NCBI GenBank assembly: GCA_036867785.1
Contig: CP145420.1
Coordinates: 992,001-1,056,000, forward strand
From: Plasmodiophora brassicae
Taxonomy: Eukaryota
DNA: 64,000 nucleotides
Direction: 5' to 3'
This document shows, one piece after another, positions 38,661-41,193 of the stretch; position 1 is the stretch's first letter; each line of letters starts with the position of its first letter. A model generated the notes under the pieces. It did not search any database and was not told the origin of the DNA. It saw only the letters and a program-made list of their open reading frames with translations. Made by a program: the position numbers and the translations under genes.

Positions 38661-39289
38661 TGAATGTGCAAGCAGCGCTGTTCACCCAGAGAAATTGGGG
38701 CGTTTACACAAGTGGAGCAGGTTGCGTTGTCTTCGTACGTCGTGCGTTGGCCCATGCCGACATGGGCGTCGGCGACGTCGGCATGGACGCAAGCAGGGCA
38801 TGAAGGCGCATCACGACGTCGGCGACTTGGGGCATCTGGCGACGACACGCCCCTGGCCAAGAGGGGCAAGGCGTCCAGTAGGCCATGTTATGTGGAATAC
38901 GGCTCCGTTGGCCCATGGCGCTGGTCACAGGCGACTTCGGCGTGCAGGCAGGCACGAGCGACAGGTCGTCCTATCACTTTGCCGAGACCGGTCTCGATCC
39001 CGCAGCGACCCTTTCTGTGACGATCCTATCGAAGTACTGTAATCAGTTCGTTATATATCATCAGGCGTCGACTCTTGCGTCCGGCCGCCCCCCGACACAC
39101 GTGCGGGCACTACCGTGTTTGTCGGCGCTCCAGCCGTTTGGGAAGCAGATATTGCCTCCTCGTCCTTGCCCGCCATCGCGTTGCCTGTTCCGCCGCGCGT
39201 TCCCGGTATGCTCGTAGCATTTCCGCACCGGTGCATGCCGACTCATTCGGTTGGCCAAGGTGTTGACAGCCAAGCTCGCGATCGTGGTG

Positions 39290-40104
39290 ATGGTTGGATC
39301 CAGAGCACATGCCGGCGTGGAATGGGTCCTATTTTGGTTACACAGCACAGTCTCCCTTGCGGCGTCAGCGTACCCGGTACCGCCAATCGTTGTCAGTTTC
39401 ATTTTGGAAAGGATGCAGTTGCCATCGAGCGTCGTCGAGCATCTTCGCGGAAACGCGGGGCGGCGCGCCGCGTCAAGCTTCGATAATGTCGAGATTACGA
39501 TCGAAAATGACACTGGGCGTGCGACGATAGCCGTCCAGCATGCCAATTATATCGAGCTGGTCGCCACTGGAACCCCGACGGCGGGGCGGAACCCGTTACC
39601 TGCGTACGCAGGTAAACCTATACACGCCATCATCAGGTTGTTATATTCACGTTCTGCTATGCAGCACCCGCCGTGTCCTTCACGGCGGGAAACAAGACGC
39701 TGACGGCACACAAGATCAAATTCTATGTTCGGCAGCTTCTAGGCGAGCGGACAGTGGCCGCCCTGATCAAGCGGCCCAAAGGCGCCTGGGTCCTGAAAAA
39801 GGCAGCTGACGTCAACGGTTTGTCATCCCGTCTGCAAACGTCAAGGCGACGGCCTTTTTGAGGTAACTGGTCACGTACAGTGCCGGTAGCCGTGTACCGC
39901 CTGGTTCGACGCCTGCGAGGTTTGTCCGTCAAGTTCGAGCTCAATCCGATATTCTTGGGCAACAGGTCCACCTCGTTTCGTAATATCATGATCATGGACC
40001 TCGATAACCTATCCATCGTCCTGAGAAGCATCGGCGGTGGCAGTCGGTTAATTCCGTGTTATGGAGACAATAGTCGTCCGTCGTGTCGTCTCCTGACATC
40101 TTAA
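39290..40104 (+). CDS. Putative secreted protein of about 238 aa (IR3 left paralog)
   Basis: Signal-like start MVGSRAHAGVEWVLFWLHSTVSLAASA. Introns 39612-39664 and 39818-39862 give an uninterrupted frame. Many differences from the right paralog are synonymous. Confidence 0.7.
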
Positions 40105-40201
40105 CCGACTGCCGAAGCCGTCGGTTGCCGTGGACGTTTATTCAAACTGCGCGGCTGCGCGACCCCCGTCGCGGCCGTGCCATAACATATCCGTGGTGAA
40201 T

Positions 40202-41019
40202 TTATGACCGGTCCAGGGGGATAGTACTGACGTGATCAGCCCAGCTGGGCATTTGAAGGCTGGCTTGCTGCTCGCCGCCGATGCTTGACAGGACAATGGA
40301 TAGGTTATCGCAGTCTATGATCGCGATTTTACGGAACGAGGTGGACTTGCTGCCCAACATAATCGCCTGTAGTTCGTCCTTGAACGACAAACCTCGCAGG
40401 CGTCGAACCATGCGGTACACGACTATCGGCACTGTACGTGACCAGTTACCTCAAAAAGGCCATCGCCTTGACATTTGCAGACGGGATGACAAACCGTTAA
40501 CGTCAGCTGCCTTTTTGAGGACCCATCCCTCCGGCCGCTTGACCAGGGCGGCCACCGTCCGCTCGTCCACGAGCTGGCGAACAAAGACTTTTATCTGGTG
40601 TGCCGTCAGCACCCTGTTTCCCGCCGAGAACGACACGGCGGGTGCTGCATAGCAGAACGTGAATATAACCACCTGATGATGGCGTGTATAGCGTTACCTG
40701 TGTACGCAGGTAACGGGTTCCGCCCCGCCGTCGGAATTCCAGAGGCGACCAGCTCGATATAATTGGCATGCTGGACGGCTATCGTCGCACGCCCAGTGTC
40801 ATTTTCGATCGTAATCTCGACATTATCGAAGCTTGACGCGGCGCGCCGCCCCGCGTTTCCGCGAAGATGCTCGACGACGCTCGATGGCAACTGCATCCTT
40901 TCCAAAATGAAACTGACAACGATTGGCGGTACCGGGTACGCTGACGCCGCAAGGGAGACTGTGCTGTGTAACCAAAATAGGACCCATTCCACGCCGGCAT
41001 GTGCTCTGGATCCGACCAT
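40202..41019 (-). CDS. Putative secreted protein of about 239 aa (IR3 right paralog)
   Basis: Same start and same two introns as the left copy, with an intact frame. It has a one-codon indel and a different C-terminal tail. Confidence 0.7.
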
Positions 41020-41193
41020 CACCACGATCGCGAGCTTGGCTGTCAACACCTTGGCCAACCGAATGAGTCGGCATGGTCCTACATAGGTACATAGGTATTT
41101 GGTTACACATCGCAGTCTCCCTTGCGGCGTCAGCGTATCCGGTACTGCCAGATTCATTTTGGATATGGATTGCAGTCGCCATCAAGCGCTATT

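Follow-up and report, generated by a model that had tools for sequence, protein, structure and literature searches.

Two spliced orphan genes in a small Plasmodiophora brassicae palindrome, and a mosaic of arm divergence that suggests patchy gene conversion

How can two copies of a gene come to look more alike in their introns than in their exons? The question is raised by IR3, an inverted repeat in a 64,000-nucleotide (nt) stretch of the genome of the clubroot pathogen Plasmodiophora brassicae (assembly GCA_036867785.1, contig CP145420.1, positions 992,001 to 1,056,000 of the forward strand; hereafter the window, in whose own numbering all positions are given), which carries two paralogous genes arranged tail to tail. 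We consider it rather probable, though well short of certain, that IR3 is a convergent inverted duplication of a P. brassicae-specific orphan gene, that both copies are intact, transcribed and spliced, and that the mosaic of near-identical and diverged segments between them has been produced by arm-to-arm gene conversion.

The arms of IR3 align over 804 nt at 92.3% identity, and are composed of outer arms (39234-39776/40533-41075; 543 nt, 96%) and inner arms (39787-40037/40275-40525; 251 nt, 88%) on either side of a short spacer:

39234-40037, plus strand: left arm, from self-alignment against the reverse complement of 40275-41075
40275-41075, minus strand: right arm, from self-alignment
40038-40274, no strand: spacer of 237 nt, consisting of the novel tail and stop codon of the left gene, 97 nt between the stop codons of the two convergent genes, and the tail of the right gene

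Each arm-spacer junction is present in contigs of all four public sequencing runs considered (X2, X4, X17 and X19), and the palindrome is therefore not an artefact of assembly. X2 is a DNA run; X4, X17 and X19, which come from three studies, are referred to here as RNA-type, their RNA status being an automated guess. Homology between the arms stops at 40037, inside the coding region of the left gene, and a 13-nt inverted repeat (40039-40051/40101-40113) starts one base past this boundary, with the left stop codon lying within its second half. Over about 40050-40187 the summed contig depth in X2 was 20-40 times as high as in the flanks, an indication that the centre of the palindrome holds a multi-copy repeat; a second copy of this segment was not found within the 64-kb window.

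Each arm encodes a gene with three coding exons, for which we arrived at the following models:

39056-39205, plus strand: 5' leader exon of the left gene, extending at least to 39056, which an X4 contig reaches
39206-39259, plus strand: 5' leader intron of the left gene, 54 nt, GT..AG; joint 39204/39259 (cut +1) in X4, and the same junction in the 339-amino-acid (aa) PBRA_008589 model
39290-39611, plus strand: left coding exon 1, 107 codons and 1 nt; ATG at 39290; 100% identical to SPQ99483.1
39612-39664, plus strand: left intron 1, 53 nt; X17 and X19 skip it, with the joint variant of 4-nt ambiguity, and X2 does not
39665-39817, plus strand: left exon 2, from the spliced open reading frame (ORF)
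39818-39880, plus strand: left intron 2, 63 nt; X17 and X19 have the joint 39816/39880 (cut +1), X2 does not
39881-40104, plus strand: left exon 3, stop codon at 40102-40104; codons from 40038 on are not part of the repeat
40698-41019, minus strand: right coding exon 1; ATG at 41019-41017, the public model starting at an internal Met (codon 42)
40645-40697, minus strand: right intron 1, 53 nt; joint variant with 3-nt ambiguity in X4, X17 and X19, which fits an ACAG end
40495-40644, minus strand: right exon 2, one codon shorter than the left, from the spliced ORF
40432-40494, minus strand: right intron 2, 63 nt, predicted by mirroring the left gene and from the public model
40202-40431, minus strand: right exon 3, stop codon at 40202-40204; the ancestral C-terminal tail of the family at 40205-40274

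The intron 1 joint (GT..AG) was found in all three RNA-type runs and the intron 2 joint in two of them (X17 and X19), and neither occurred in the DNA run. The intron 1 joint comes in two variants, whose ambiguities of 4 and 3 nt are those of the left (..GCAG) and right (..ACAG) ends of exon 1, showing that both copies are spliced at this intron. At intron 2, an X19 contig runs on past the acceptor, from 39880 to 40098 and with no mismatches, into the left gene's own tail; splicing of the right-arm intron 2 was not seen in the contigs of X4, X17 and X19. An earlier inspection of the bare sequence (hereafter the sequence-only reading) had recognised a tail-to-tail inverted pair of intact paralogs, and this stands: the repeat is real and both spliced ORFs are open. 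That reading had also given each gene two introns and a product of 238-239 aa, and had staked the model on spliced reads at its junctions. Intron 1 at 39612-39664 is seen spliced in both arms, and intron 2 is spliced in the left arm from the proposed donor at 39818; the acceptor, however, is 39880 rather than 39862, and the intact spliced proteins have 232 (left) and 233 aa (right). The left frame from the ATG at 39290 also remains open, for 238 codons, with the introns first proposed. A joint at acceptor 39862 (39817 to 39863) was not among the contig joints listed, although contigs drop rare variants and minor use is possible. The average intron in the P. brassicae genome is given as 60 bp in the accessible text of PMC4471660.

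The pair belongs to a family of four genes at two loci, with L (left; PBRA_008589/SPQ99483.1) and R (right; PBRA_008588/SPQ99482.1) in IR3, and A (PBRA_005415/SPR00647.1) and B (SPR00649.1/PBTT_08738) together on another contig. Our left model is identical letter for letter to SPQ99483.1 (232 aa; the junction reads ...ADVN/VPVAV), and the right one agrees with SPQ99482.1 (192 aa) from an internal Met on, save for 2 residues. The pair is indeed missed by the ORF track of the window, as had been pointed out, but it is not new to annotation, where both genes already figure as hypothetical proteins. The public records of the four genes describe the same loci under hypothetical or unnamed labels, and their start sites conflict: 339 versus 232 aa for the left gene, and 276 versus 226 aa and 193 versus 233 aa for the paralogs. 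We take the ATG at 39290 as the putative start of the left gene, because MVGSRA... is common to all four family genes at that point, because two annotated N-terminal extensions read homologous DNA in different frames (the left leader region is homologous to the region upstream of A, whose annotated extension matches another frame), and because the spliced left leader (38918-39289, 318 nt) has no ATG, as is the case for 22 of 2548 windows of that length. The start of the right gene is less certain, since several ATGs are found in its upstream region. These disputed starts decide whether a signal-like segment is N-terminal, and hence whether secretome screens would catch the genes.

Along these models, the divergence between the two arms, which can be told apart at 62 positions, is distributed as follows (dS and dN, synonymous and non-synonymous divergence by the Nei-Gojobori method; p values for exons 2 and 3 from Fisher's test):

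Upstream of the ATG: 0 differences in 56 nt
Exon 1: 5 differences in 322 nt; dS 0.025, dN 0.013, dN/dS 0.5
Intron 1: 3 differences in 53 nt
Exon 2: 22 differences in 153 nt and a 3-nt indel; dS 0.34, dN 0.107, dN/dS 0.31, p = 0.016, purifying
Intron 2: 2 differences in 63 nt (39839 and 39850)
Exon 3, homologous part: 27 differences in 157 nt; dS 0.19, dN 0.21, dN/dS 1.1, p = 1.0
39787-39925, plus strand: a further block of low divergence, enclosing intron 2; 7 differences in 139 nt, the remaining 208 nt of the 3' part having 45

The introns differ at 5 of 116 positions, compared to 18 of 81.5 synonymous sites in exons 2 and 3 (p = 2e-4). This indicates that exon divergence is not merely amino-acid change laid over a young duplicate; instead, the diverged parts appear to be old and the similar parts homogenised. 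The similar segments form blocks that are not matched to intron boundaries. The first, from 39234 to ~39690 (~460 nt), has a single arm difference in the first 276 coding nt (at 39295) and holds the longest identical run between the arms, 270 nt, a length reached in none of 20000 uniform placements. The second reaches 45 nt into exon 3 and is significant in a permutation scan with a window of either 139 nt (p = 0.0004) or 100 nt (p = 0.008).

The other locus offers a comparison, made here at the protein level only (identity in the N-terminal and C-terminal halves, respectively):

L and R: 97% and 76%
A and B: 94% and 77%
Between the two loci: 69-75% and 57-68%

In both pairs, within-locus differences are much rarer relative to between-locus ones in the N-terminal half than in the C-terminal one (p = 0.0018 by Fisher's test for L and R, p = 0.039 for A and B), and this shared contrast implies that both loci show 5'-biased concerted evolution. 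The informative protein columns for the grouping of L with R and of A with B number 25/0/0 in exon 1, 4/1/0 in exon 2 and 6/0/0 in exon 3. On the comparison of the two arms the sequence-only reading had been accurate. It had noted near-identity over the first ~275 coding nt and introns more alike than exons; its hand counts (5 of 98 intron positions, both intron 2 differences falling inside its 45-nt version of that intron, and about 22-23 differences plus one codon indel in exon 2) agree with ours; and arm-to-arm conversion at the 5' end, which it had proposed, is supported by the fall of dS to 0.025 in exon 1 from 0.34 and 0.19 in exons 2 and 3, by the 270-nt run and by the contrast between the two protein halves.

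Given the observed structure, splicing, silent-site heterogeneity and left/right asymmetry of the pair (the last discussed below), we infer that patchy arm-to-arm gene conversion is the best reading of the mosaic. Non-reciprocal exchange between the arms would have left near-identical segments among diverged ones, in one tract that opens 56 nt before the ATG and closes at the beginning of exon 2 (about 39234-39690) and a second, shorter one around intron 2 (about 39787-39925), while outside the tracts the copies would be old, with a dS of 0.2-0.35. We propose that the introns look more alike than the exons because they sit inside conversion tracts.

Several points weigh against this interpretation. 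Taken by themselves, the two DNA sequences fit conversion, a later partial re-duplication and constraint on intron 2 alike, with nothing in them to tell these apart, and the grouping of L with R and A with B in every segment also fits two independent duplications combined with faster C-terminal change. In the last 31 nt of exon 2, which belong to the second block, 2 of ~8 synonymous sites differ; both differences there are synonymous, a pattern that remains compatible with constraint specific to intron 2, and the low divergence of the block may be largely due to intron 2 and the start of exon 3. The right copy of the window differs from the database copy by 3 nt within 9 nt, the database copy matching the left arm there, and this cluster may be a conversion polymorphism or a clustered mutation, as the database state is also found in all other family members. 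The RNA label of X4, X17 and X19 has as its sole backing the GT..AG joints missing from DNA run X2, and unspliced contigs also occur in these three runs. Lastly, the branch-wise dN/dS comparison given below assumes an even split of synonymous changes.

The intron could also have been kept by function, together with its flanks, an exon 2/intron 2 stem hiding the upstream AG (39861-39862) and so steering splicing to 39880. It speaks for this possibility that intron 2 differs at only 2 of 63 positions while adjacent exon 2 synonymous sites still differ, that RNA-type contigs use the downstream AG, and that in the right arm a stem of ~16 bp joins exon 2 (CCUCAAAAAGGC) to an intron segment ending at the unused AG, in the minimum-energy and the centroid structure. 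Neither the block as a whole (z = 0.42 and -0.05) nor its neighbouring segments, however, fold better than shuffles, the left-arm stem has a mismatch (39795) and is absent from the predicted fold even though the same acceptor is used there, and low divergence extends 45 nt into exon 3. We regard functional constraint on intron 2 as an unlikely source of the second block. The right-arm stem (within 40387-40525, minus strand; mirror 39787-39925) could, in its own right, bear on the choice of the downstream acceptor.

Outside the proposed conversion tracts the two copies have not changed to the same extent. Polarised by the paralogs, the L/R replacements of the C-terminal half comprise 15 that are left-derived, 4 that are right-derived and 7 that are ambiguous (p = 0.019), and, on the assumption that the two branches share the synonymous changes equally, the ratio of the proportions of non-synonymous and synonymous changes (pN/pS) comes to about 1.0 for the left branch and 0.27 for the right one. 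The tail of the right copy aligns with those of A and B (..QQASLQMPSW.DH.S.P.D.), and that of the left copy does not; in the left gene, the final 21 codons are read from sequence outside the arm and show no relation to the tail of the family. Such lopsided replacement fits one relaxed or re-purposed copy. We suggest that purifying selection would have preserved both the ancestral sequence and the C-terminal tail in the right copy, whereas the left one, still with the ancestral 5' leader, would have taken on about three quarters of the amino-acid changes at a roughly neutral rate, its tail being replaced by spacer sequence adjoining the multi-copy repeat. The left copy may thus be under relaxed constraint or have acquired a new role.

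The sequence-only reading had gone further and seen here a secreted effector pair, with the 5' end homogenised and the C-terminal half driven apart by diversifying selection. Exon 3, with 22 non-synonymous and 7 synonymous arm differences and a dN/dS of 1.1, could be taken to agree with this, as could the concentration of 15 of the 19 polarised replacements in one copy, the confinement of an orphan family to a biotrophic pathogen, the spliced contigs in runs filed under host organisms and the AXA motif at the N-terminus. But the exon 3 ratio is not distinguishable from 1 (p = 1.0), purifying selection acts on exon 2 (0.31, p = 0.016), and synonymous divergence is itself high, so that the exons are old and not just fast at replacement sites; the loss of the conserved tail in the left copy fits relaxation as well as adaptation, the hydrophobic core of the putative signal peptide is weak, and 2 of the 4 public models begin downstream of it. 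There is no excess of amino-acid change, the very outcome that the sequence-only reading had named as speaking against its proposal, and diversifying selection on the C-terminal half is not supported. That the pair are diversifying effectors we consider doubtful.

The question of secretion can be separated from that of selection. The best 11-residue Kyte-Doolittle mean at the N-terminus is 1.47 (residues 13-23), followed by the AXA motif ASA/YP, and the highest hydropathy window (2.05) lies at residues 29-39. Of the signal-like start noted earlier, the AXA motif holds, while the stretch preceding it is, on this hydropathy-based view, only moderately hydrophobic; the chances that the protein may enter the secretory pathway are about even. 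According to the accessible text of PMC4471660, a P. brassicae candidate secreted effector is operationally a protein that is SignalP-positive, has no transmembrane segment, is under 450 aa and is expressed. At 232 and 233 aa both proteins fall below this size, and the spliced contigs come from host-filed runs whose RNA status is guessed. The pair resembles such candidates in being small, lineage-specific, present in infected-host runs and, by hydropathy, signal-like at the N-terminus; it differs from them in not being cysteine-rich (the left copy has 2 Cys, both in its novel tail) and in having no known effector motif or domain. The effector label, which draws on a modest signal-like N-terminus, expression in host-filed runs and orphan status, would best be treated as one of convenience.

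It may also be that the palindrome is mainly a source of double-stranded RNA (dsRNA), through read-through or overlapping convergent 3' ends, from which 21-nt small RNAs (sRNAs) regulating the four-gene family are made. The arms are able to form long dsRNA (804 nt at 92%, with a perfect duplex of up to 270 bp), the stop codons are only 97 nt apart, and right-gene contigs reach 40080 while left-gene contigs extend to at least 40098. In P. brassicae, the accessible text of PMC13547706 describes 21-nt phased sRNAs and a working RNA interference (RNAi) pathway with two AGOs (AGO1/2) and a Drosha-like RNase III, and its Fig. 2G legend a palindromic region yielding microRNA (miRNA). Self-silencing by a hairpin would accordingly be mechanistically possible in this organism. 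Set against this are the intact spliced ORFs of both copies and the purifying selection on the right one, and contigs carry neither strand nor single-molecule span; none among the contigs listed crosses both arms or the whole stretch. As the main role of IR3, dsRNA production appears to us improbable. Equally improbable is the more specific scheme of a young gene-derived hairpin, in which dsRNA from the coding paralogs would feed a Dicer-less PbDRL/AGO pathway, the resulting 21-nt sRNAs would tune all four family members, and conversion would keep the 5' 460 nt in duplex. Were the hairpin interpretation true, the arms would be conserved no less for the pairing of RNA than for the protein.

Hairpin-RNA and proto-miRNA loci born by inverted duplication of genes are a model for plants. 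IR3 shares with them an inverted duplicate of coding sequence that could fold into long dsRNA, and its organism does make 21-nt sRNAs; it differs in that each arm has remained an intact spliced gene and that a spacer of 237 nt separates the two. Elsewhere in the window, a palindrome at 30910-32124 has inner arms (31237-31486/31498-31747) that are 97% complementary around an 11-nt spacer, and outer arms at 85-97%. Its centre (31441-31543) gives a sub-threshold match to RF04263, a plant miRNA-precursor family (61.9 bits against a gathering score of 96.2), which probably only reflects the perfect hairpin. This palindrome is a better sRNA-hairpin candidate than IR3.

The last alternative, a foldback-type transposable element or assembly artefact, to which the 13-nt inverted repeat and the 20-40x summed depth of the spacer segment in the DNA run might be attributed, is largely refuted and retains almost no probability, given that the arms have a summed depth of only ~1-3x the flanks (extra paralog contigs aside), encode a spliced gene with paralogs at one other locus, contain no transposase or other Pfam domain that could be found, and are joined to the spacer in 4/4 runs.

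Returning to the gene family affected by the proposed conversion, a search of 5.8 billion sequences yielded only the 4 family proteins among 1472 candidates, and the sole match in 1.84 billion representatives was the query itself. When metagenome contigs were scanned with the alignment of the family, 302 pattern matches came up, none of which was confirmed as a relative. No Pfam family was found at E <= 0.1 with the three exon translations of the left gene or with right exon 3, the ESM Atlas contains one family protein with no usable feature match, neighbour or model, and a scan of 30000-45000 for Rfam families and tRNAs had no match in IR3. AlphaFold2, run on the 4-sequence alignment, gave no confident fold (mean pLDDT 32.9, pTM 0.22); with low confidence, the protein may be beta-rich. 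A relic of a third exon 1 copy, 91 nt long and 80% identical to 39333-39431, lies at 41098-41188 on the plus strand, head to head with the right gene and just before the second unit of a segmental duplication, with WLH.AVSLAASAYPV.P kept in frame.

In the literature searched we found no mention of the locus tags or accessions of the four genes, although supplementary effector lists may name them, and, supplementary tables lying outside the search, no description of the inverted layout, conversion mosaic or asymmetry of the pair. Nor were palindromes or gene conversion between pathogen paralogs found for P. brassicae in the titles and passages considered, those of the pangenome preprint included.

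Sex-chromosome palindromes of primates have inverted arms with gene conversion between them. IR3 is similar in that its arms surround a unique spacer, that each contains an intact expressed gene, and that identity would be kept by intrachromosomal conversion. It is, on the other hand, about a thousand times smaller (0.8-kb arms), its conversion would be patchy and has left half of each gene diverged, its arm boundary cuts a coding region, and its host is a rhizarian parasite.

IR3 is located between the two units of a direct segmental duplication (32188-35233 and 38002-38659 versus 41194-44423, 69-100% identical in pieces), with the palindrome at 30910-32124 placed before the first unit. A third palindrome, at 34026-34926, has arms that are 99% and 95% alike; its counterpart at 42874-42988 is single-copy where 34026-34926 is palindromic, so the segmental duplication came first and this inverted duplication or insertion later. 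Within this 10-kb stretch, palindromes seem to arise time and again. No Pfam family is matched by ORFs of the segmental duplication (such as 42203-42901 and 33428-34030 on the minus strand), and of six neighbouring ORFs five have none at E <= 0.1, the other giving one weak DEP match below the cut-off. Further along, tandem arrays occupy 53719-55522, with about nine units of 147-155 nt (53823-55100) and, after these, a microsatellite-like run rich in CCGT (55123-55353); on either side stand the copies of a 99-nt direct repeat (53719-53817/55424-55522, 98% alike), and GC and AT skew are strongly negative there. The GC content of the window is near 60%, and ORFs in it match WD40, Naf1, Cid1-type poly(A) polymerase, GH18 and C2CD3-like domains.

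What would lend this locus importance is a secreted effector pair in rapid diversification, a claim to which the present numbers give no support: judging from the sequences compared here, one copy appears to be conserved while the other drifts or has a new role, with no sign yet that the pair are fast-evolving virulence factors. Interest would be modest unless the sRNA or effector readings are borne out, and the RNAi link can be tested cheaply with existing sRNA libraries. The genes were already in public annotation and gene-bearing palindromes with conversion are of a known kind, of which this is a tidy new example from a rhizarian parasite. What IR3 does provide is a worked gene model, with RNA-type contig support, for two poorly annotated genes of the clubroot pathogen whose public starts conflict. 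It suggests that small palindromes in the compact genome of P. brassicae can carry live genes exchanging sequence, and, should conversion tracts vary among isolates, the four-gene family would offer a convenient marker of recombination within chromosomes, in a pathogen that can be neither cultured nor crossed.

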